Source of the DNA: an uncultured Gammaproteobacteria bacterium
GTDB taxonomy: Bacteria; Patescibacteriota; Patescibacteriia; UBA9934; CAZDDW01
DNA: 64,000 nucleotides
Reading direction: 5' to 3'
Assembly (NCBI GenBank): GCA_965231015.1
Contig: OZ246408.1
Location: 280,158-344,157 of the forward strand
Both the position numbers and the translations under genes were made by a program. Of this stretch, positions 3,158-56,065 are shown piece after piece (the first letter of the stretch is position 1; the number at the start of each line of letters is the position of its first letter). Under the pieces are notes generated by a model that ran no database searches, was not told where the DNA came from, and saw nothing but the letters and a program-made list of their open reading frames with translations.

Positions 3158-3192
3158 GGTTAACCCTTAAATCGTAGTAAAAATAGGCATTT

Positions 3193-3236
3193 TTGTCAAT
3201 TTGGAGGTTGACAAATTTATTTTTTTCGGCTAATCT
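3193..3236 (+). promoter_or_regulatory. Sigma-70-like promoter (TTGACA at 3208-3213, 17-bp spacer, TAATCT at 3231-3236) overlapped by the inverted repeat TTGTCAA-N8-TTGACAA (candidate operator)
   Basis: Read directly. It sits ahead of a strong RBS (AGGAGG) and the ATG at 3281. Confidence 0.45.
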
Positions 3237-3869: not shown

Positions 3870-4915
3870 CTACTTTTTCTTCTTGTTGGCGGTGCCGAGG
3901 AACTCCAGCCAGCTGATCCAGTCCTCCTTGTAGTACGAGTTGGGGTTCGAGGGGAGTCGTGGATCATCTGTCTTACGGTTACCCTTGTACTGCCCGACAG
4001 CTTTGTACCCAAGTGACCGAGTGGCGGTTCGGGCTTCCTGGTAAGTAGAATACAGTTCTGGGCTTGTTGGTCTTTCTAAGAACTCATCCCAGCTGACCCA
4101 ATCGGAAGCGTACTTTTGCTGCGGGTGACCAGGGAGTCTTGGGTCAGTATTACGACCTTGGAGATATCCTGGATATGTTGTTATCCCGAGAGCACGAACA
4201 GCAGCTCGAGCTTCTTGGTAGGTGGCATACAGTTGAGATTTATTCTTCCTTCCGAGGAAGTCATCCCAACTAACCCAGGTTGCCTTATAGGTCTGCCTTG
4301 GTTCTGAAGGCAATCTTGGGTCGATCCGACGTTTATTCGTATATTCTTTGCTTGTTTGCACTCCGAGCCTCTGTACCGCTGCTCGAGCTTTTTCGTACGA
4401 TTCATACAACGGCAGCTTGGCAGTTCTTCCCAGAAAGTCATCCCAGCTGATCCAAGATTCGTAGAAGGAGTTGGGGTTGGAAGGAAGTAAGGGATCCTCG
4501 TTATACCGCTTTCCATATTCAGTGGTGTTGGTAACACCACCAAGAGCTTGGACAGCAGCACGAGCCTCTTCATAGGTTTTGTAGAAGGTCTTTTTTTGAG
4601 TTCCTAGGAAGTCATCACCGCTGACCCATTCATTCGCATATTTTTTATATGGACTTGCCGGAAGACGAGGGTCTTGTTTGTATCCCGCCTTGTATTCCTT
4701 CATGTCCTTGAACCCGAGGGCCTGTGCGGCAGCCTGAGCCTCAGCGTAGGTGGGGTATTTTATCCGTTTGTTTTCAGTCCCCAAGTAGTCAGGCCAATTT
4801 GTCCAATCGGATGGATATGCCATGCGAGGGGAACACGGAAGTTTGGGATCAGTTTTATATAGAGATTGATACTCCATACAATTTTTTGGTCCCAGCGCTT
4901 GCGCAGCAGCTTGAG
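3870..4915 (-). repeat. Six imperfect tandem repeats of about 175 bp encoding the helicase C-terminal repeat module
   Basis: Periodic recurrence of GTCATCCCAGCTGA[CT]CCA-like cores at about 180-bp spacing (near 4085, 4262, 4440, 4620, 4800) and of the protein motif. Confidence 0.7.
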
Positions 4916-6176
4916 CCTCTTCGTAAGTCTCATAAGGTGTGGTGTTGAGCCGGTCAAGTACCTTCAGGAGGTCCAGGATCTCGGTGGTGAAACCGAGCTT
5001 GAACTGGTTACTCGTGATGTCGATCGTCTTAGGCTTGTCGTCACCTCCACCGTAGTGGGTGACGTCGAGGCCGAGTTCATGAACCGCCAGAATGCGGTCG
5101 CAGTTGGCCACGAAGTCGAGGACCGTGACGTTCAGCTTTTCGGCAGTGCGGCGCAGGCCGCGGCCGAGTTGCTGAAGCCAGATGGTCTTCGAGTCCGTTG
5201 CCCGCAGGAACACGATCAGTTCCGCGTCCGGGATGTCGATACCCTCGTTGAACTTGTCGATAACGAGGAGGGTCTTCAGCTTTCCGGAACGGAAATCGCG
5301 CATCCGTTGCTCGAGGCCACTCTTTCCCACCTTGGAGTGGTACTGACGAGCCTCGGGCATGAGCTTGGCAACACGCCGGGCGTGCTTGATCGAACGACAG
5401 AAGATGATGGTCTTCTTGCAAGCCCTACCGGGCTGTCGTTGATGCTCACGGATGATCCGGACCTGCTCTTCCATCCTCTCCTTAAGGAAGATAGTGTCGT
5501 CTAGCTGCTTGCGCGAAACTGTGCGGTCACCATCTCCAACTCGTCGAATCAGTTCGTGGAGCTGTCGGATATCCAGGTTGTCGGTCAAAAGGTGATAGTC
5601 CACCCGCGCCAGCCATTCATCAGCCGCGATTGCCTTGGCGAGGTCATAGGTGTAAACCTCGTCGCCGAAGATATCGCGAATGTCTCGACCGTCCGCACGT
5701 TCACGTGTGGCGGTCAGGCCAACGAGAAGCAGAGGGTCGAAGTGTCGGATAGCAGGCTCGTAGGTCACAGCCTTGCCGTGATGAGCTTCATCTACCACGA
5801 TGAGATCGAACATGTCGGCCGGGAGGCTCTTGTAGGCAGTGCGCATGGTCTGTAGAGTCGTGAAGACCACTTCAGCACCATTGCAGCGCGCCTGGAAGTT
5901 GTTGGATCCGATGACCACGTGGGTCTCGTGTCCGTGCTCTTCCAAGCTCTCCTTGAACTCGTCGGCATTCTGGGTCGTGATGTCGAGACTATCGACCATG
6001 CACAGAACGCGGTTGATCCCCTCGTTGTGATTGAGAAGCAGTTCAGTAACATGGCTCGCGAGCACGGTCTTACCGAGCCCGGTGGCCATAACGATGAGGG
6101 CCTTGCTAAGACCCTCACTAACCGTCCGCCACAGATTATCTGCAGCTTCTTGCTGGTAGGGTCGTAGAGTTTTCAT
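3870..6176 (-). CDS. SF2 (DEAD/DEAH, SSL2/type-III-res-like) helicase fused to six C-terminal tandem 58-aa aromatic repeats. The ORF extends to 6251, but the likely start is the Met at 6176 (MKTLRPYQ).
   Basis: Motif I GLGKT, motif II VVDEAHH, motif VI QQLGRGLRR. Six repeats follow with consensus Y-x-[ST]-Y-[EQ]-E-A-[RQ]-A-A-[VA]-x-x-L-G ... DPRLP-x-x-P ... W-[VI]-S-W-D-[DE]-F-L-G. Confidence 0.8.
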   Translation of the reverse strand: MKTLRPYQQEAADNLWRTVSEGLSKALIVMATGLGKTVLASHVTELLLNHNEGINRVLCMVDSLDITTQNADEFKESLEEHGHETHVVIGSNNFQARCNGAEVVFTTLQTMRTAYKSLPADMFDLIVVDEAHHGKAVTYEPAIRHFDPLLLVGLTATRERADGRDIRDIFGDEVYTYDLAKAIAADEWLARVDYHLLTDNLDIRQLHELIRRVGDGDRTVSRKQLDDTIFLKERMEEQVRIIREHQRQPGRACKKTIIFCRSIKHARRVAKLMPEARQYHSKVGKSGLEQRMRDFRSGKLKTLLVIDKFNEGIDIPDAELIVFLRATDSKTIWLQQLGRGLRRTAEKLNVTVLDFVANCDRILAVHELGLDVTHYGGGDDKPKTIDITSNQFKLGFTTEILDLLKVLDRLNTTPYETYEEAQAAAQALGPKNCMEYQSLYKTDPKLPCSPRMAYPSDWTNWPDYLGTENKRIKYPTYAEAQAAAQALGFKDMKEYKAGYKQDPRLPASPYKKYANEWVSGDDFLGTQKKTFYKTYEEARAAVQALGGVTNTTEYGKRYNEDPLLPSNPNSFYESWISWDDFLGRTAKLPLYESYEKARAAVQRLGVQTSKEYTNKRRIDPRLPSEPRQTYKATWVSWDDFLGRKNKSQLYATYQEARAAVRALGITTYPGYLQGRNTDPRLPGHPQQKYASDWVSWDEFLERPTSPELYSTYQEARTATRSLGYKAVGQYKGNRKTDDPRLPSNPNSYYKEDWISWLEFLGTANKKKK

Positions 6177-6296
6177 TGTGTAGCCCTTTTGTTGTTTGTT
6201 AAATTGTGAAGAACAAGGGCGTAATTTAGTATAAAAATGGCTTATTGTCAATGGTCTATTGTAATTTTAGCCAAATTTTGATATTATCCTGTCATT

Positions 6297-25936: not shown

Positions 25937-26857
25937 TTATTTGATTTTAGAAATCACGACCCGATCAAGACCACCAAGGTCTTTTTTGATTTCCGGTTTG
26001 CTTCCAGGAAAATAATGCTGTATCAAAGACACAATGGCTTTACTTTGTTGTGGGTCAATTTCAATGATGGTGTAGGTATTTTTGGGTAGAGTATTTTCAG
26101 CTCGAACCAGATCCTTATACAGCTTCCAATATTCATCTAATCCGTCTGCCCCGGCCACCAGAGCCTCAAGCGGCTCCCAGTCACGAACTTCAGGTTGAGC
26201 TTCAGTCACTTGTTCAGTGGTCAAGTAAGGCAGGTTAGCGGTAATAATGAGATTGTCTGGTAAAAGTCGCGGATCTTTTTCTTGAAGTTTGACCAGTGTT
26301 TTATTGACGGGTTCAAATCCCGGACCGGTTTTAAATTCAATCAGGTCACTGACTTTGTGTTTACGAGCGTTTTGTTTGGCCAGGGTTACAGTCCGTTCGT
26401 TGATATCATTGGCGATTACAGGTTGTCCGGTTTCTGCGGCTATGGTCACAGCAATCGCGCCAGAACCAACCCCGATGTCAGCAAACCAAGTTTCACCCTT
26501 TAGTTCAGACAGAGTATTCAAGGCTGACTCAATCAAGCTTTCTGTTTCTGGGCGGGGAATCAAAACAAATCTGTTCACACTAAAGTCCCGACCATAGAAA
26601 AATTTCCGGCCTGTTATGTAGGCCAACGGTTCGTTTTTGATTCTTCGTTTTATCATTTTACGAAAGGCATCGGCTTTGGCTTCTGGGACGTCATGGTAAA
26701 GATTCGAAAAAAGATAGGCCTTTGGTTGACCTAAGCTAGCCGCCAACATGAGTTCACTATCAAGCATGGGGGCCTCGAGTTTGGCAAAGTCAGGATTAGT
26801 CTCTTGGGCTTCCTTGAGCTTTTTGTTTCCCCATTCCATTAATTCCATGATTTTCAT
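25937..26857 (-). CDS. prmC: Release-factor glutamine N5-methyltransferase-like (PrmC/HemK family)
   Basis: SAM-binding GxGxG (DIGVGSGAIAV) and an NLPY variant of the NPPY motif. Same orientation as prfA nearby. Confidence 0.65.
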   Translation of the reverse strand: MKIMELMEWGNKKLKEAQETNPDFAKLEAPMLDSELMLAASLGQPKAYLFSNLYHDVPEAKADAFRKMIKRRIKNEPLAYITGRKFFYGRDFSVNRFVLIPRPETESLIESALNTLSELKGETWFADIGVGSGAIAVTIAAETGQPVIANDINERTVTLAKQNARKHKVSDLIEFKTGPGFEPVNKTLVKLQEKDPRLLPDNLIITANLPYLTTEQVTEAQPEVRDWEPLEALVAGADGLDEYWKLYKDLVRAENTLPKNTYTIIEIDPQQSKAIVSLIQHYFPGSKPEIKKDLGGLDRVVISKIK

Positions 26858-26884
26858 AACGCCTTGAGATTACCTTAAGTTTTT

Positions 26885-27125
26885 ATTTTTGTAAAAGAAA
26901 AAGGACCACGCCGCTTCGCTCGGGCGGTGGCGATGCCGAGGGGGCGGTGGTCCTTGCGGGGATGAACCGGGTTGACCCCGATGAGGGAATTCAGACGATC
27001 AGGGACTATCCACAGATCGCCGCATTAGCGGGGAGATCAACCCGGTTCAATTTGAGCCGGTAATTCGGCAAGGAAAGAACAGATTTGGAGGGTCGCCTTT
27101 ACTATTTTTAGGTTAGCAAGCCCGT
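26885..27125 (-). ncRNA. Candidate structured ncRNA, or a long terminator element, of unknown family
   Basis: About 62% GC in an AT-rich context. Long-range 12+5 bp pairing GAACCGGGTTGA..CCCCG / CGGGG..TCAACCCGGTTC. On the minus strand it ends in a 50-nt hairpin (GGACCACCGCC...GGCGTGGTCC) followed by TTTTTCTTTT. Confidence 0.3.
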
Positions 27126-27134
27126 TTTTGAGTG

Positions 27135-27809
27135 TCAAACCGTTTTATTGGCTACCTCGAGTTCTTCCTGGGTTCCGACCGGTAACCAAAAATCAGCCTT
27201 TATAACTTTTAACCCACACTCATCAACCATGTGGTTGAAGGTGTGGGGAAGGGAGTATTCGGTCTTACCGTGTACTTTTATCTTTTCAAGAGGGTAGTTG
27301 AAAAATTCTGGAGTGAGCACGTAAGCTCCGGTGTTGCGTAAAATTGGCTCGTCTTCGTCCGGGTTGTGTCGAATACCTAAAAAGCACCCAATGGCATCAG
27401 CCTCAATCGTTGATGGTGCCGGACCTTTTGTTTCAAAAACCAGCATTCCGTTATCCAGATCTATTAATCTCCTTAGGTCGTCTTGGTGATAAAGGTCATC
27501 TCCATTAACAACCAGGAATTTTTCCTCGAGATCATCTTTTAACAGGTGTAAGGCGGCCCCGGTGCCGTTTAGTTTAGGCTGATCAACGTAACGAATTGGT
27601 TTATCTTGAAAGGTGTCTCCCAGGTGATCGATTATTTGCTCTTTCAGATGGTGTACCACAATGATAATCTCATCGACACATTCAGGAAGGGATTCCAGGG
27701 TATGCTCGATTAAGGGCTTGTCTCCAATTGTCACCATGGCCTTGGGGGTGGTTTCAGTTAATGGGCGTAGTCGGAGTCCGGTCCCGGCCGCAAGAATGAT
27801 TGCTTTCAT
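27135..27809 (-). CDS. Sugar-phosphate nucleotidyltransferase (NTP-transferase fold)
   Basis: MKAIILAAGTGLRLRPLT matches the nucleotidyltransferase signature G-x-G-T-R-L. Confidence 0.7.
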   Translation of the reverse strand: MKAIILAAGTGLRLRPLTETTPKAMVTIGDKPLIEHTLESLPECVDEIIIVVHHLKEQIIDHLGDTFQDKPIRYVDQPKLNGTGAALHLLKDDLEEKFLVVNGDDLYHQDDLRRLIDLDNGMLVFETKGPAPSTIEADAIGCFLGIRHNPDEDEPILRNTGAYVLTPEFFNYPLEKIKVHGKTEYSLPHTFNHMVDECGLKVIKADFWLPVGTQEELEVANKTV

Positions 27810-27812
27810 AGT

Positions 27813-28877
27813 TTAAGATAGTTGTTCTTCAATGTTTTTTTGTTTTAGTTCTTCGATGATATCGGCTATATCACCATCCATTATTTTAGGCAGGTCAGAC
27901 CAGTTTTTGTTCACACGATGATCAGTAAGCCTGTCTTGCGGGTAGTTGTAGGTGCGAATTTTTTCGCTCCGACCCCCTGAGCCAATTTGTCCCCGGCGTT
28001 TTTCTTCAAGTTCAGCTCGTCGTTTTTCTTCTTCCATGGCAAAGATTCGGGCTCGAATGATTGAGAGAGCTCGTTCTTTGTTTTGTTTTTGCGAACGTTC
28101 GTCCTGGCAATAAACCATGAGTCCTGATGGAAGGTGGGTAATTCGGATCGCTGAATAGGTGGTGTTGACAGATTGCCCCCCGCTTCCGGTGGACGTAGTA
28201 GCCTCTATTTTTAGGTTTTTTGGATCAATTGTAATTTCAGTTTCTTCGATTTCAGGAAGCACGGCTACGGTTGCGGTGGAGGTGTGAATCCGTCCCTGTT
28301 TTTCCGTTTCCGGAACGCGTTGCACTCGATGCACCCCGGACTCAAATTTCATTTGTCCATAAACTCCATCACCTTGTATGCCAAAGATGACTTCCTTGAA
28401 TCCACCAAGGTCGTTTTGTGAACTTGAGATCAGTTTGGTTTTCCAATTCATCCGCTCTGCATAACGTGAATACATGCGGAACAGGTCTGCGGCAAACAAG
28501 GCGGCCTCGTCCCCGCCCGTTCCGGCGCGTATCTCAATGATCACATCTTTTTTATCAAGTGGGTCCGGTGGAACCAAGGCGATAATTACATCCGCCTCAA
28601 GTTTGGCTATCTTTTCCGAAAGATCAGCAATTTCCGTTTCAGCCAACTCTTTCATTTCTGGATCAGCAGATTCTTCCAGCGTACTTTTGGCCCCTGCCAA
28701 ATCGTGAATCAACTTATCGTATTCATCGATAACTTCCATCTTATCTTTTAAGACAGAGTATTCAGTACTCACTTCCTTCATTTTTTTGGGATCAAAAACC
28801 AGGCTCGGGTCAGCCAGTTTCTGTTCGAGCTCGGCAAAGTGTTTTTTTCTGTTGTCGATTTCTTTTTGGATGTCCAT
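27813..28877 (-). CDS. prfA: Peptide chain release factor 1
   Basis: GGQ motif (SGGQSVNTT) and PxT-type domain. 354 aa. Confidence 0.9.
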
Positions 28878-29280: not shown

Positions 29281-29354
29281 TATCAGTACGGCGGAAGTTT
29301 ATCAAACCGAGTAAAACTTGTCAATCCCTGTAATTTCGCTATGATAAGCGTCGT

Positions 29355-31339: not shown

Positions 31340-31368
31340 AGGTTCTTGCTTGACAATTTTTGCCAAGT
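31340..31368 (+). promoter_or_regulatory. Sigma-70-like promoter for rpsB-tsf (TTGACA, 17-bp spacer, TATTAT)
   Basis: Read directly. The roughly 130-nt leader that follows is GC-rich and may be structured. Confidence 0.35.
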
Positions 31369-31500
31369 TTAGTATTATTCTGCGCGTAATTAACACACAG
31401 GTGGTTTAGCAATTTAAGCACAGCGAGGTCCTGCCAATTTGGCCCCTGGCTGATACCACCGAGGCACGTCCGGTCGAATCCGGGCTAAAAGGAACTAAAT

Positions 31501-37562: not shown

Positions 37563-37600
37563 CCGGCCATTGACAAATGGCCGGATTTGTTTTAAATTAA
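37563..37600 (+). terminator. Strong intrinsic terminator after eno
   Basis: TCCGGCCATT gaca AATGGCCGGA 10-bp stem followed by TTTGTTTT. Confidence 0.6.
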
Positions 37601-37750
37601 GCCTCCAGTGAGGTTGAATAGGTCAACCTTGTACCGTGCGCGGCGGTAACCGCGCCAGGCCCGTTTGGCGGGCCGAGTTTCTGTCCCAGGGTTACCAAAG
37701 CGCTGGCCGTCAGGCTGTCGCAAGGATCCCCAAGGATGGAGGGTTTTGGA

Positions 37751-38464
37751 ATGTCAGATTTGTTCAACGTGGGCCACGCGGCCCAACTGCATGAGATACA
37801 GAAGGCGCGCTTGGCGCGCAACGAGCCCGGGATCGGGCCGGAGGTGGAGGAGCTCATCCGGCGCTTGACCTCGGGCGGCGTGGCCGGCAAGGTCGTGGAT
37901 GACATCCGGCTGATCCAGGCCAAGCGGTTCTTCGACCGCGGCTTCGGCCGCGAGCTTGGCCTCAAGGACTTCGCGGCCTACCTCGCGACCATCCCGACCG
38001 TGCCCGAGACGCTCCTCGCGGACGACCCGAACTTCCCGCTCCTCGTCCTCGGCGAGCCCCGCCTCGGCCTTACTCGCGCTTGCGAGCTCATCGGCCTGCG
38101 CTACACGGGCAGCGACCAGACGCTAGTCCCGTTCGACAAGCGTCACGCCGAACCGACCAAGCCGTGGTGGTTCAGCATGCACGACGGCCGGCGCAACCGT
38201 AACCGCAAGCCGAGCGACTGCCGCACGAGCCTCGGTGCAAACGAGATCAGCGCCACGGCTTTGCGTGGAGTCTGCACCTTCCTGCACCACCCGGGCGTGA
38301 TCGTGCAGGGGGAACACTGTGTGGATCTGCCCGGCTCGGTCGACGCCGAGTACCGCGGCTACAACGCCGACCTCGGCATTTGGCGCGACGAGCCGAGGCT
38401 CTACAGAAGCATGAGCGGTTTCGCCGACCTGGACTACGGTTCGGCCTCCTGCCGGGAGTGCTGA
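37751..38464 (+). CDS. DGR target (variable) protein, GC-rich, no signal peptide. The C-terminal approximately 40 aa are encoded by the VR.
   Basis: About 62% GC ORF with RBS GGAGGG. Its 3' 122 bp align to the TR with mismatches confined to TR adenines. Confidence 0.7.
   Translation: MSDLFNVGHAAQLHEIQKARLARNEPGIGPEVEELIRRLTSGGVAGKVVDDIRLIQAKRFFDRGFGRELGLKDFAAYLATIPTVPETLLADDPNFPLLVLGEPRLGLTRACELIGLRYTGSDQTLVPFDKRHAEPTKPWWFSMHDGRRNRNRKPSDCRTSLGANEISATALRGVCTFLHHPGVIVQGEHCVDLPGSVDAEYRGYNADLGIWRDEPRLYRSMSGFADLDYGSASCREC
38338..38459 (+). repeat. DGR variable repeat (VR), 3' end of the target gene
   Basis: 122-bp alignment to 38781-38902. About 27 differences, essentially all at positions where the TR has A (for example TR AAC/AAG/AAC against VR GAC/GAG/CGC). 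The 3' 25 bp are identical, consistent with an IMH-like anchor. Confidence 0.75.
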
Positions 38465-38492
38465 ATCTCGATCCTGGTTCTCTTGTATCTTT

Positions 38493-38533
38493 CCGCCCCC
38501 AAGGCTAACCTCGGGGGCGGTATCTTTTTTCTT
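38493..38533 (+). terminator. Intrinsic terminator after the target gene
   Basis: CCGCCCCC aaggctaacct CGGGGGCGG followed by TATCTTTTTTCTT. Confidence 0.6.
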
Positions 38534-38780
38534 AAAACTTTGTTCAAATTTATTTGAAAGTAGGGTAATGAATTGCAGATTAAGGTTCGCAGTCCCCGAA
38601 ATCCTCGAAAGAGTTATCGCCAGAGTCATGTATTTTACGGAATACATGGGCGCGCGATTCGGACGAGTCACTCCTTGCTGAATTCTAGCGGGGATATGCC
38701 CCGGAATGAAATACAACAGCAACCTTCCCGGTGAAAGAAGCTGTGGTGAATGCGGGTGAGATTCAGCAATAAGTGAGGGC

Positions 38781-38902
38781 GGTCAACGCCAAGTACCGCG
38801 ACGACTGCGCCTACCTCAACATTTGGAACGACGAGCCGAAGCTCAACAGCAACAGGAACGACAACGCCAACCCGAACTACGGTTCGGCCTCCTGCCGGGA
38901 GT
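38781..38902 (+). repeat. DGR template repeat (TR), non-coding and adenine/AAC-rich
   Basis: Read in the VR frame it gives VNAKYRDDCAYLNIWNDEPKLNSNRNDNANPNYGSASCRE with many AAC codons. No ORF covers it. Confidence 0.75.
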
Positions 38903-38914
38903 AACTTGATCCGG

Positions 38915-38944
38915 AAAACGCTCCAAACAAGGGCGTTTTTTTAA
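38915..38944. terminator. Bidirectional intrinsic terminator between the TR and the 3' end of avd
   Basis: AAAACGC(T)CC aaacaa GGGCGTTTT, with A/T tracts on both sides. Confidence 0.5.
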
Positions 38945-39289
38945 CTATAATGACCGTTGCCAGCCGCCAAGCATTTGGCCGATTTTCTGCAGCCGTTCTT
39001 CAAAGTCAAGATATTGTTTTTCGGTTATGATCTTGATTTCGAAAGCCAGACGAAATAGCACTTTAAGGAGGTTATTTTTCAGAATAGCCTGTTTGATCGG
39101 CGCGATTTTGAACTCGCGCTTGGCGTTTCCGGCTTCGATGATTGAGACGAGCATATTTAGCACGGTTTCCTCGATCTTGCTGCCCAAGGTGTATTTTTCA
39201 GCCTTAGGGAATTTGGCGCGGATGAGATGAAAATCCTTGAGCAGGTCGAACGCCAGCTGAAAGACTGGCGCTTCATTGATTGAATACAT
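38945..39289 (-). CDS. avd: Avd-like accessory variability determinant (four-helix-bundle / 23S rRNA IVS protein family)
   Basis: 114 aa, helical. FPKAEKYTLGSKIEETVLNMLVSIIEAGN ... GGWQRSL matches the family pattern (FPK.E.Y.L..Q..R...SI..NIAEG ... GGW). Its start codon abuts the RT start on the opposite strand (CAT|ATG). Confidence 0.6.
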   Translation of the reverse strand: MYSINEAPVFQLAFDLLKDFHLIRAKFPKAEKYTLGSKIEETVLNMLVSIIEAGNAKREFKIAPIKQAILKNNLLKVLFRLAFEIKIITEKQYLDFEERLQKIGQMLGGWQRSL

Positions 39290-40279
39290 ATGTTTGAACA
39301 GATTATTTCTTCAGAGAATATGTTTTCCGCTTGGCGCGAATTCCGCCGCGGCAAGAGGGGGCGAAGAGACGTTGCCGAGTTTGAGTGTAGCCTTGAAGAT
39401 AACATCTTTGCTTTGCGTGAAGATTTGGCGAGTGGTCGGTACAAGCACGGGCCGTATCAGCGGTTCCATATTTTTGATCCCAAGCACCGCATTATTCATA
39501 AAGCCAGTGTGCGCGATCGGCTGGTGCACCATGCAGTTTATCGAGTCCTGTATCCTATCTTTGAACAATCTTTCATTTACGACAGTTATTCCTGTAGGAT
39601 CGGTAAAGGTACACATGCAGCTGTGAGCAGACTTCAGACCTTTGTTCGTAAAGTAAGCAAGAACTACACTAGTCCGTGTTGGGCCTTGAAGTTCGATATC
39701 AAAAAGTTCTTTGATTCCGTTGATCATAATATTTTGCTCAATGTGCTTAAACAAAAAATCTCCTGCCCTAAGACAAACCGTCTGTTGGCGGAGATCGTGA
39801 ACAGTTACTTAAGTTCAAATTCCGTTGGGGGGGGGGCGATACTTAGAACCATTCGCGCGAAAGGTCTACCGATAGGAAACCTAACTTCTCAATTATTTGC
39901 CAATGTTTATTTAAATGCATTTGACCATTTTATCAAAGAAACAGTCAGAACCAAGTATTGTCTAAGATACACTGATGACGCTCTTATCATCCACCAAGAT
40001 CCCCAATACCTCAAACTCCTCATCCCCTTCATCCAACACTGGCTTTGGCAAGAGAGAAGATTATGCTTGCACCCAAATAAAACCTCTGTCCGAAAATTAT
40101 CTCAAGGTATTGATTTCTTAGGTTATGTCACTATGCCACACTATAGAGTATTAAGGACTAAAACAAAAAGACGGATGTTAAACATTATTTGTGAGGATAA
40201 TTTGGTGTCGTATGCTGGCCTTCTCAAGCATTGCTCGGGGCATGAATTGATCAAGACAATTTATGGTATAATATCGTAG
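39290..40279 (+). CDS. Diversity-generating-retroelement reverse transcriptase
   Basis: N-terminus MFEQIISSENMFSAWREFRRGKRGR. RT motifs FIYDSYSCRIGKGTHAA, LPIGNLTSQLFANVYLN (DGR-specific SQ variant), the catalytic RYTDDALI box and QGIDFLGY. Confidence 0.85.
   Translation: MFEQIISSENMFSAWREFRRGKRGRRDVAEFECSLEDNIFALREDLASGRYKHGPYQRFHIFDPKHRIIHKASVRDRLVHHAVYRVLYPIFEQSFIYDSYSCRIGKGTHAAVSRLQTFVRKVSKNYTSPCWALKFDIKKFFDSVDHNILLNVLKQKISCPKTNRLLAEIVNSYLSSNSVGGGAILRTIRAKGLPIGNLTSQLFANVYLNAFDHFIKETVRTKYCLRYTDDALIIHQDPQYLKLLIPFIQHWLWQERRLCLHPNKTSVRKLSQGIDFLGYVTMPHYRVLRTKTKRRMLNIICEDNLVSYAGLLKHCSGHELIKTIYGIIS
39827..39836 (+). repeat. G10 homopolymer inside the RT ORF (encodes VGGGA)
   Basis: ccgttGGGGGGGGGGcgat, counted directly. 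Confidence 0.6.
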
Positions 40280-51383: not shown

Positions 51384-51608
51384 GTGATGTAGGGGTTAAT
51401 TGCATTAACCCTTTAGACACAGAAACCGCAGATAAAAGATCTACGATTTCGTGTTACCCCTGTCCGACCGGTTTTGCCGGGCGGAAGAAAGTCCGTCATC
51501 ATGTTCTGGTCCAGACCCAAGTGGGAGGAGATGAACCCGGGCAGAACAAGAGATAACAGACTTCCTCCCGCCCTCAATAAATGACTTTATTGGCGGAGGC
51601 TCCCAAGA

Positions 51609-51767
51609 TTAAAAAGAACGAGTGAGCAAAGTACGGGTCATTTGTTTAAAACGACGTCGACTCAGCCGAACATTCATGCGACGGCGCACGCGTTCTGCTT
51701 TACGGACACTGCGCAAGGGCATAAAGGACATGGTGGCGTCATAATGACGCATGGTAGTGGATGACAT
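51609..51767 (-). CDS. Unannotated small basic protein (52 aa, MSSTTMRHYDATMSFMPLRSVRKAERVRRRMNVRLSRRRFKQMTRTLLTRSF)
   Basis: Perfect RBS AGGAGG 5 nt upstream of the ATG. Below the 60-aa cutoff of the ORF track. Arg-rich. Confidence 0.4.
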   Translation of the reverse strand: MSSTTMRHYDATMSFMPLRSVRKAERVRRRMNVRLSRRRFKQMTRTLLTRSF

Positions 51768-54368: not shown

Positions 54369-55889
54369 CTAGAGGAGGGGGAGGACCCACTCGGGTACGT
54401 GACCGATCTGGAGCGGGGTACAGGCGAACTCGGCCATTTCCGCGTAGCGGTTGCGGTAGTTTAGGCTCACTTTCTGGCAGACCCGACGGAGAACACGCTT
54501 GATCTCGTCCATGTCCTCGTCAGTGAGGCTTGGAACGCGGTCGCGTAGTTCAGTTTCCGAGTTCAAGAGTAAATCAGCCCAGATCCAGATGCCGGCCTGG
54601 TCGAGCTTGATTTCGACCTCCGGACTCGGGTGGTCGGATCGTTGAGCATCGTGGCGGTGGCACCGGCAGGTCAGCGAGCTCTTGAGTACGCGCCAGGCCA
54701 GCAAGTCCTCCACGAACATCGTAGGCAGGTTCATGCCCAATGATAGACCGAGCTCGGCCAAGATATCCTTGAGCTCGTTCAAGCTCTTGCGGCCAAAATT
54801 TTTGGTGCGCAACATGTCAGCCTCGCGGCGGATCACCACTTCGAAGAGGAACATGACGTTCTGGTTCTCGAGGCAGTTATGGGTGCGTCGCGAGAGTTCG
54901 AGGCCACTGACCGGCTTCATCAGGTTCTGGATTATGGCCGGATCGAGGTTGACCTTGGGAGTGGACACGGTCCGGCCGGGCTGCCACAGCTCGAGGCGCA
55001 GAACCTGTTGTTCCAGCTTCTCAACCTGTGCCCGGGTCTGATCCAGGCTCCAGCGCAGGCTTCGCATCTCGTTCGGCTCCGGCGTCCACCACAGGTCCTC
55101 AAAGTGCTGCTTGTCCGTTGGACGGCGCAGCTTGCGCAAAGCCTTGGCCCGGAACTGCCGGACGCGCTCGCTCGAGTAGTTCATTTCGCGAGCGAGCTCG
55201 CTCTGCTTCGTGGGTGGGTTGCCGTCGAGGCCGTAGAGCTCGGTGATCACAATGAATTCCCGCGGCGTCAGTCTCGAGCGGAGGCACTCATCGATCCACT
55301 CGTGGTCGTCGATCCGCCAGTGCGGACAGATCTTGCTGCCCGCCATCAGATCATGATCTTCCTTGACGATCAGGTCCTTCAGCTCGATGACGTTGATTGG
55401 GCTCGGGTACTCGCCGAGCTCGATGGCCCGCAGGACCATGTCGAGCAGGTCCGGAGCGGGTTCGTTCTCAAGATTGATCCCGAGCACCGCGGCCACGAGG
55501 GGCACGTACGGCTCCTGCTCCGGGTACACCCGCGGACGCAGGAAGGGCCGCAAGCCCCGGGTCACACCGTGCGCGAAGTCGACCATACCGAGCTCCTCGA
55601 AGACGTACTCCTGAAGGGCGCAGAACAGCTTGGCCTCGACGCTGTCGACCGCGGGAGTCTCGACCGTGAACTTGGCCAGACGCTGCACGATACCCGTGAG
55701 GCGTTCACTTTTGCCCGGTCGGTCCGGGAAGCACTTGGTCATGCCGCCACGGGCCTGAACGTCGTTGCGGATCGCTCCATCCGACCAGCCGACGTACTTG
55801 GCGGTCTCCGGATAGGTGAAGCCCAGCTTAACGAGTTCGTGAACCAGAGGCCAGCGCTCGCGGCGATTCTGATGGTAATCTCGTCTCAT
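54369..55889 (-). CDS. Transcription-factor-like protein combining a sigma-70 region-4 HTH and an RNAP alpha-subunit C-terminal-domain-like (alpha-CTD) segment
   Basis: LTPREFIVITELYGLDGNPPTKQSELAREMNYSSERVRQFRAKALRKLR matches sigma region 4. LELSRRTHNCLENQNVMFLFEVVIRREADMLRTKNFGRKSLNELKDILAELGLSLG matches the alpha-CTD HhH. About 58% GC. Confidence 0.55.
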   Translation of the reverse strand: MRRDYHQNRRERWPLVHELVKLGFTYPETAKYVGWSDGAIRNDVQARGGMTKCFPDRPGKSERLTGIVQRLAKFTVETPAVDSVEAKLFCALQEYVFEELGMVDFAHGVTRGLRPFLRPRVYPEQEPYVPLVAAVLGINLENEPAPDLLDMVLRAIELGEYPSPINVIELKDLIVKEDHDLMAGSKICPHWRIDDHEWIDECLRSRLTPREFIVITELYGLDGNPPTKQSELAREMNYSSERVRQFRAKALRKLRRPTDKQHFEDLWWTPEPNEMRSLRWSLDQTRAQVEKLEQQVLRLELWQPGRTVSTPKVNLDPAIIQNLMKPVSGLELSRRTHNCLENQNVMFLFEVVIRREADMLRTKNFGRKSLNELKDILAELGLSLGMNLPTMFVEDLLAWRVLKSSLTCRCHRHDAQRSDHPSPEVEIKLDQAGIWIWADLLLNSETELRDRVPSLTDEDMDEIKRVLRRVCQKVSLNYRNRYAEMAEFACTPLQIGHVPEWVLPLL

Positions 55890-56065
55890 GACTCCCTAGT
55901 CCTTTCCTGGGTTGTGTTTTTGGGAAGGAGCAAGACTGTAAAGACTAGCAATTTCAAGCTTAGTTGTCAAGGTTTTTAGCTGTCTTCAGCCTAATATCTT
56001 GACAAAAGCTTGTTTTTTGTGTAGGTTGTTTTCTTGCCAAATGACTGGCAAAACCAGGGTGAACC

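Follow-up and report, generated by a model that had tools for sequence, protein, structure and literature searches.

The 277-nt gap that separates an NTP-transferase gene from prmC on the minus strand of the window (the whole stretch of 64,000 nucleotides that was analyzed) is non-coding and carries, in this order, a predicted sigma-70-type promoter, a predicted structured RNA of ~211 nt and a terminator-like hairpin with a U-tract, 35 nt ahead of the prmC start codon. We read the gap as a minus-strand non-coding transcription unit that may serve as a leader or attenuator of prmC, an interpretation that we prefer although our confidence in it stays a little short of even. The terminated RNA could possibly also be a free sRNA that acts in trans. 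We would place the element, as yet unclassified, in a known kind of RNA, namely bacterial leaders or small RNAs that end at an intrinsic terminator. If real, it would be a concrete promoter-to-terminator RNA that controls or accompanies prmC in the Candidate Phyla Radiation (CPR). The layout and its recurrence in relatives go beyond what the first-pass annotation of this DNA could see. That annotation had suggested that the element may be an sRNA specific to the lineage or a leader that regulates prmC in cis. The promoter- and terminator-like edges and the equal layout in six relatives speak for this proposal, whereas the lack of homologues of the element and its absence from the closest relative speak against it.

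The nearest named relatives of the PrmC encoded in the window belong to Candidatus Uhrbacteria (CPR). PrmC is a SAM-dependent methyltransferase that modifies release factors. To our knowledge almost nothing is known about gene regulation and non-coding RNAs in CPR/Patescibacteria, and a literature search on ncRNAs in CPR and on prmC leaders yielded nothing relevant. The operon on the minus strand starts with rpmE (L31), followed by prfA (RF1), the NTP-transferase gene, the gap and prmC; the identities of the NTP-transferase and of prmC were taken from Pfam. No ORF of at least 40 aa was found in the gap. The gap sequence recurs without any difference in two independent Logan assemblies and is therefore not an assembly artefact. 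The positions of all features are collected in Table 1.

Table 1. Genes, predicted signals and predicted RNA parts around the gap upstream of prmC (positions in the window)
Feature	Position	Strand	Description	Basis
prfA	27813-28877	minus	RF1
NTP-transferase gene	27135-27809	minus		Pfam
Gap	26858-27134	minus	277 nt, non-coding
prmC	25937-26857	minus		Pfam
Predicted sigma-70-type promoter	27110-27138	minus	TTGACA-17-TGcTAACCT	read from sequence
-35 element	27138-27133	minus	TTGACA; overlaps TGA stop of NTP-transferase gene	read from sequence
Extended -10 element	27118-27117 (TG); 27115-27110 (-10)	minus	TG and TAACCT, after 17-nt spacer	read from sequence
Hairpin H1	27090-27123	minus	GGGCUUGCU...GGCGACCC	folds
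C/U-rich 5′ segment	27070-27096	minus	GCGACCCUCCAAAUCUGUUCUUUCCUU, contains CCUCC; predicted mostly unpaired	transcript fold
Hairpin H2	27056-27069	minus	small; GCCG-AAUUAC-CGGC	folds
H3, four-way junction	26964-27048	minus	closed by 12+5-bp helix	fold
H3 closing helix	26964-26980 with 27029-27048	minus	GAACCGGGTTGA-CCCCG pairs with CGGGG-AGA-TCAACCCGGTTC	fold
H3 inner hairpins	27020-27031; 26996-27019; 26982-26993	minus		fold
Linker	26954-26963	minus	AUCCCCGCAA; unpaired	sequence and folds
Hairpin H4	26903-26953	minus	51 nt, irregular, GC-rich; base GGACCAC/GUGGUCC, C-rich interior CCGCCCCCUCGG	fold
U-tract	26893-26902	minus	UUUUUCUUUU; directly after H4, predicted 3′ end of ~211-nt RNA
U-tract-to-ATG stretch (35 nt) with prmC ATG	26855-26892 (ATG 26857-26855)	minus	AAGG Shine-Dalgarno-like motifs	L003 alignment
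Direct repeat, left copy	27142-27149	minus	AATAAAAC, imperfect	L003 junction comparison
Direct repeat, right copy	26879-26887	minus	AATAAAAAC, imperfect	L003 junction comparison

The predicted promoter at the 5′ edge of the gap has the -35 and -10 elements, the spacing of 16-18 nt and the position at the 5′ end of the unit that are expected of a sigma-70-type promoter, and it would place the start site at about 27103. The window contains 13 sites of the pattern TTGACA-N16-18-TANNNT where 1.83 are expected (~7-fold), a total that was reached in none of 100 shuffles, and the site at the 5′ edge of the gap is one of these 13. Of the sites whose position was compared with that of the ORFs, most lie a short way upstream of a gene; one of them fronts rpmE, the first gene of the operon. 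As the canonical pattern is both enriched and mostly located upstream of genes, it is a good predictor of promoters in this genome. A generic promoter scanner made no call at 27138-27110, because the -10 element matches the consensus at only 3/6 positions. No promoter-like match was seen in the 35 nt between the U-tract and the prmC start codon.

The first-pass annotation had described positions 26885-27125 as about 62% GC in an AT-rich setting. We measured 54.4% for this segment, and 65% is reached only in the core at 26903-27048; nor is the setting AT-rich, with 44-46% GC in the flanking genes and 46% in the window. About 10% of all 241-nt segments of the window equal or exceed the GC content of the element, mostly via GC-rich genes elsewhere. 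The structural description proved more accurate: the long-range helix of 12+5 bp is present and closes the four-way junction H3, and the minus-strand hairpin, given as 50 nt, measures 51 nt (H4) and runs directly into the U-tract.

Folding energies were compared with those of dinucleotide-shuffled sequences. The region 26870-27135 folds better than its shuffles on both strands (z = -4.5 on the minus and -3.5 on the plus strand; 0/200 shuffles as good), and the four-way junction alone reaches z = -5.6 in sense (-41.8 kcal/mol, 0/200 shuffles as good) and z = -5.1 in antisense orientation (-38.8 kcal/mol). For the predicted ~211-nt transcript a z of -4.1 was obtained. The fold score supports the element but is not distinctive for the gap, since values of z = -4 to -6.5 are also reached by several further intergenic regions, which fold equally well or better. 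Strong hairpins are common among the intergenic regions of this genome.

Among the predicted hairpins, H1 overlaps the promoter spacer, the -10 element and the start site, so that only RNA that reads through from the upstream operon could form it; its two G-U pairs on the minus strand are A-C mismatches on the plus strand. In the C/U-rich 5′ segment the nucleotides 27096-27094 take part in a short long-range helix of the MFE structure that is missing from the centroid. Alternatives exist for the closing helix of H3, which on the sense strand can also be drawn with 16 continuous pairs including two G-U pairs, and the linker in front of H4 offers the CGGGG in the 3′ arm of H3 another CCCCG as a possible partner. 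The stem of H4 with the following U-tract appears terminator-like, although the hairpin is long and irregular and, taken alone, is weak evidence with z = -2.1. It was not called by a simple, consensus-based terminator scanner, probably because the scanner takes only loops of 3-8 nt and H4 is long and has internal loops.

If the unit works as a leader of prmC, the internal promoter would re-initiate transcription at the end of the NTP-transferase gene, near position 27103, and the RNA would fold into an unpaired C/U-rich 5′ segment, H2, the H3 junction and finally H4 with its U-tract (26953-26893). Most transcripts, whether started at the internal promoter or in the rpmE-prfA-NTP-transferase operon, would then stop at the U-tract, and those from the internal promoter would yield a stable RNA of ~211 nt. 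prmC would be made only from read-through transcripts and at a low level, so that the effect in cis would be to uncouple prmC from the upstream genes and to lower its expression. The order of promoter, structure, terminator and gene is the reverse of a plain operon boundary, and it is from this order that we expect prmC to be reached only by read-through. Read-through could be constitutive; its regulation, for example through a factor that binds the H3 junction, is possible but unsupported: folds of the nascent transcript gave only one alternative to the terminator, a 5-bp pairing of GGCGA with UCGCC, and a convincing antiterminator was not found in the element. A reading as leader peptide, with an upstream ORF that senses stop codons, was rejected, as there is no consistent upstream ORF; on the sense strand none with a start signal was found in the window or in the relatives L094, L095 and L096.

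This layout resembles that of 5′ leader attenuators (riboswitch platforms and protein- or RNA-controlled leaders), which likewise consist of a promoter, a long structured leader and a hairpin with U-tract in front of a start codon and have no promoter after the terminator, so that the downstream gene would need read-through. The element of the window differs from them in that no conserved sensor domain, leader peptide or clear antiterminator was found, and regulation is something that we infer. Furthermore, the syntenic leaders in the relatives of the window share the layout but not the sequence. A riboswitch would be expected to have a sensor that is conserved upstream of the same gene; here the syntenic leaders have no sequence in common and L003 has no leader.

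In order to place the element in its lineage, the neighborhoods of prmC were compared in the relatives L003, L005, L007, L087, L089, L093, L094, L095, L096, L097 and L098. L007 was taken from a search of genome contigs with a PrmC profile, which was unspecific and also returned distant phyla. Four relatives do not carry the element: the gap measures 12 nt in L003, 16 nt in L087 and 5 nt in L089, and the genes overlap in L093. L003 is the closest relative, with a PrmC that is 82% identical, and its 12 nt lie between the NTP-transferase gene and prmC as well; the last 22 nt of the stretch 26855-26892 are kept in it. Given these four genomes, the element is dispensable.

Six relatives, however, appear to have the order of promoter, structured RNA (130-725 nt), terminator and prmC at the equal junction. 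The unit of L094 is ~230 nt long, has the promoter TTGACA-17-TATGCT (10/12) and folds with z = -9.7. That of L096 (~155 nt) has the same predicted promoter, with 19 nt identical around the -10 element, and has the same neighbors as that of the window, the NTP-transferase gene and prmC. L095 carries a unit of ~136 nt with the promoter TTGACA-18-TATAGT (11/12) and a terminator that was called by the scanner; it ends with CCUUUUUCUUUU, a 12-mer identical to the U-tract region of the window. For L005 we found ~426 nt with TTGACG-17-TAAATT, a terminator and z = -9.0; an explanation of this gap as the remnant of an NTP-transferase gene was ruled out with tblastn. The two largest units, in L007 (~650 nt) and L098 (~725 nt), have promoter-like sites, the latter recognized by eye. 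On their sense strands L007 shows many cUUCGg and GNRA hairpins, together with a classical terminator, and L098 is built likewise, with UUCG and GNRA tetraloops. The GC content lies 7-21 points above that of the locus in six of the seven units (window, L005, L094, L095, L096 and L007); the unit of L098 is not enriched (57% vs 57% for its locus). On the sense strand C outweighs G in every one of the seven, with a GC skew of -0.05 to -0.27, and the flanking genes are near 0. The other Uhrbacteria units are thus like that of the window in position, predicted promoter-to-terminator layout, C over G skew and, with the exception of L098, GC enrichment.

The same features would also suit a stand-alone trans-acting sRNA of ~211 nt whose adjacency to prmC is incidental, a somewhat unlikely alternative in our assessment. 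The unpaired C-rich motifs CCCUCC, AUCCCCGC and CCCCCUC would then pair with G-rich ribosome-binding sites, as do the C-rich-motif sRNAs of Gram-positive bacteria. Compared with RsaE/RoxS of Firmicutes and 6C RNA of Actinobacteria, the element would likewise be a small GC-rich RNA with its own predicted promoter and terminator and with C-runs that are unpaired or in loops. In the window, L094, L095, L096, L098 and L007 such runs occupy a loop or linker immediately ahead of the terminator, the sense strand is C-rich in every syntenic unit, and the variable sizes and sequences of the units would fit fast-evolving sRNAs. However, no C-rich seed is kept across the lineages, and CCUCC and CCCCUC are expected by chance ~0.2-0.6 times per element (a rough estimate from composition). 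The element differs from the known C-rich-motif sRNAs also in its phylum (CPR), in giving no match to the Rfam models of 6C, RsaE and similar RNAs, and in having no known targets; none were identified in our analysis. In the six relatives with a fully readable unit, its strict position before prmC speaks for a role in cis, as proposed in the preferred leader reading.

We regard it as unlikely that the gap is non-functional or selfish DNA, either a MITE-like or foreign GC-rich insertion or a hairpin-rich spacer, in which promoter- and terminator-like sequences arose fortuitously and which would at most stabilize the upstream mRNA in the manner of REP elements. The closest relative is without the element and has clean junctions, and the distribution within the clade is patchy. 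In addition, the GC content is above that of the host, the 12+5-bp arms are perfectly Watson-Crick paired like a DNA palindrome, and strong hairpins are frequent between the genes of this genome anyway. The likeness to REP/BIME hairpins lies in the GC-rich palindromic structure between operon genes, and the element could likewise stabilize the upstream mRNA and reduce downstream expression; it differs in being single-copy as far as seen and in having a four-way junction and its own predicted promoter. Terminal inverted repeats, as in a mobile element, are missing: the ends match by eye at 11/18 positions, which are A/T-rich, and the long helix is internal. blastn-short found a single copy in the 64-kb window with no match beyond 13 nt, and for the same reason a link to the TR/VR copy of the DGR in the window was rejected. 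No match was obtained with blastn in phage and plasmid collections. When the two 12-nt arms were used as a search pattern, viral contigs yielded no match and metagenome contigs two, both of which are unrelated, simple hairpins in unrelated genomes, and a PrmC search of viral contigs returned one irrelevant locus. The stop-free antisense translation (67 aa), which was searched in case homologous elements had been misannotated as ORFs, left no trace among 5.8 billion proteins. As far as these tools can see, the element of the window is an orphan sequence. The repetition of the predicted promoter-to-terminator layout in independent lineages also speaks against a chance assembly of signals. If the element were only a dispensable hairpin-rich spacer after all, it would be a warning that a good fold alone does not identify a functional RNA in this genome.

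The origin of the element bears on the same question. The segment that is missing in L003 is flanked in the window by the imperfect direct repeat AATAAAAC/AATAAAAAC, which is A-rich and could be a target-site duplication, a microhomology used for deletion or a chance match. In L096 the NTP-transferase has the same ANKT(V/I) C-terminus and an element is likewise present at that junction, which speaks mildly for an old element with losses in some lineages and against a recent insertion. By parsimony, about five gains stand against about four losses and neither is preferred.

Structure alone does not decide the strand of the element, as the main helices are almost purely Watson-Crick paired and H1 is better on the minus and H4 on the plus strand. 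Our assignment to the minus strand relies on the predicted promoter, on the U-tract and on the comparison with relatives, and we consider a functional plus-strand RNA in antisense orientation to the operon very unlikely. The plus strand is G-rich, as are most structured RNAs, and has lower free energies; H4 gains three G-U pairs there and reaches -30 kcal/mol against -23 kcal/mol in sense orientation. However, no promoter pattern was found on the plus strand near 26850-26900 and no good terminator either, H1 being weak in this orientation. Furthermore, the comparison with shuffles gives the stronger z-score for the minus strand, and in the relatives every canonical tetraloop, promoter and terminator is on the sense strand.

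The first-pass annotation could not match the element to SRP RNA, RNase P RNA, tmRNA or 6S RNA, and had recommended a check with Rfam; Rfam and ARAGORN agree with it. No family of Rfam 15 reached its gathering threshold in the whole window. At E<10 the region 26700-27300 gave only two chance matches with 14-15 bits against thresholds of 70-80, and nothing credible was found in five related regions. With ARAGORN, neither the window nor ten related loci yielded a tRNA or tmRNA. Resemblances noted by eye to the 5′ end of tmRNA, to CR-I/CR-V of RNase P RNA, to the hammerhead core and to the tRNA T-loop were incomplete and dismissed, as neither program backed them. A diverged known RNA, be it a riboswitch (for example a SAM-sensing one), 6S, RNase P, SRP RNA or tmRNA, would go with the GC-rich structure, with the position upstream of a gene for a SAM-dependent methyltransferase and with two short RNase P-like motifs (GGAUAGUCC and AACCCGGUUCA), but in addition to these searches the spacing of the motifs is incompatible with RNase P RNA, no aptamer-like sequence is common to the syntenic elements and the units range from 130 to 725 nt, so that this reading is already largely refuted and highly improbable.

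Within one sub-clade, the units in the relatives are homologous to each other. L094 and L096 have a 3′ three-way junction in common, in which compensatory pairs occur. A closing helix GGUG...CACC is present twice in L094 (L094-B and L094-C, a tandem duplication), in L095 (L095-A) and in L096 (L096-T), with double-sided changes at five pair positions and one U-G wobble on the sense strand. The type is defined by the helix GGUG-(N)-G...C-CACC with a U-rich tail behind it. The element of the window differs from these units in that no homology in sequence or structure is detectable. With blastn and nhmmer it has no similarity to any syntenic element apart from the short match to the U-tract of L095, and no 7-mer is common to four or more of six elements (L097 and L098 lying outside this set). 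The covariance model R1, built from L094 and L096, has no match in it, and no GGUG...CACC helix is visible. Covarying homologues in related genomes had been suggested as a further check; none of the window's sequence was found, and covariation is therefore not countable for its structure.

A wider proposal, which we put forward with low confidence, is that Uhrbacteria keep an independently transcribed, fast-evolving RNA of ~130 to ~700 nt upstream of prmC, of which the 211-nt RNA of the window would be a diverged member. If true, this would be a new lineage-specific class of RNA that is tied to translation termination via RF1 and its methyltransferase, and it would include the large tetraloop-rich RNAs (650-725 nt) that have no Rfam match. 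The series of units at the equal junction is a manageable starting point in the search for a CPR-specific RNA class. At this position L097 shows only a terminator module, which by eye resembles that of L095.

A closing helix of the form GGUG...CACC, followed by a U-rich tail, recurs at the prmC loci of three relatives (L094, L095 and L096, see table). The helix bears compensatory changes at five pair positions across the three loci, and L094 carries two tandem copies of the module. We found large non-coding regions between the NTP-transferase gene and prmC in two Uhrbacteria that are more distant, represented by the prmC loci L007 and L098. Both carry a promoter-like site at the 5′ edge and a classical terminator, and their sense strands contain numerous cUUCGg/GNRA hairpins. 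An Rfam search yielded no match for either region, and we regard them as candidate large ncRNAs. A near-perfect inverted repeat of ~126 nt (L007:1853-1978) lies 3′ of the large-RNA terminator in L007, directly before the ATG of prmC; matches of this repeat to microRNA precursors were judged spurious. In a further relative (prmC locus L005, PrmC 56% identical) the NTP-transferase gene is absent and its place is taken by a highly structured gap of 633 nt (L005:2138-2770), whose fold energy relative to shuffled sequences gives z = -9.0. Within this gap, a long-range helix of 24 bp includes several G-U pairs when the sense strand is read; no remnant of a lost NTP-transferase gene was found there.

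The two 12-nt arms of the long-range helix in the element upstream of prmC, GAACCGGGTTGA and TCAACCCGGTTC, also underlie intergenic hairpins in a pair of unrelated contigs from metagenomes (L091:5960-6033 and L092:1661-1738); one contig is AT-rich, the other GC-rich. Each arm contains the near-palindrome AACCSGGTT, and the sharing of the arms is probably coincidental.

Across the whole 64-kb window, we detected neither tRNA genes nor any Rfam family at the gathering threshold. A long and nearly perfect hairpin (GGGCGGGAGGAAGUCUGUUAUC...GAUGACGGACUUUCUUCCGCCC) is located at 51384-51633 on the minus strand, within a 500-nt gap that separates two minus-strand genes; its fold has z = -6.5, and an Rfam search with this hairpin returned no match. 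A perfect TTGACA -35 box combined with a TAnnnT -10 box at a distance of 16-18 nt occurs 13 times in the window (1.8 expected), with an extended -10 TG at several of these sites. The sites that were checked adjoin gene starts on the upstream side, for example 3171-3199, 29296-29324, 31350-31378 and 55942-55970. Judged from this pattern, the genome of this CPR bacterium seems to follow the canonical sigma-70 promoter consensus.

In a 506-aa ORF of the window with 61% GC (54369-55889, minus strand), Sigma70 region 4 occurs together with an RNA polymerase alpha C-terminal domain, which is an unusual pairing, and a ResIII/SNF2-type helicase of 793 aa (3870-6251, minus strand) contains six INT_rpt (integrase repeat) units. 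The window also harbors a complete diversity-generating retroelement (DGR) at 37570-40279, in which adenines of the template repeat are the site of most mismatches between the two repeats (A to G 14, A to T 7, A to C 2).

Table. Locations of the DGR components in the window and of RNA features at prmC loci of relatives
Feature	Location	Strand	Details
GGUG...CACC module	L094:2766-2925		
GGUG...CACC module	L095:2851-2937		
GGUG...CACC module	L096:304-382		
Non-coding region	L007:1204-1852		~650 nt, NTP-transferase gene to prmC
Non-coding region	L098:1735-2460		~725 nt, NTP-transferase gene to prmC
Predicted TTGACA promoter	37570-37598		followed by GC-rich structured leader 5′ of DGR target gene
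DGR target	37736-38464		242-aa ORF, 67% GC
DGR variable repeat	~38336-38459		inside target ORF
DGR template repeat	~38779-38902		
bAvd gene of DGR	38945-39289	minus	
DGR reverse transcriptase	39290-40279		RVT_1, E = 1e-25
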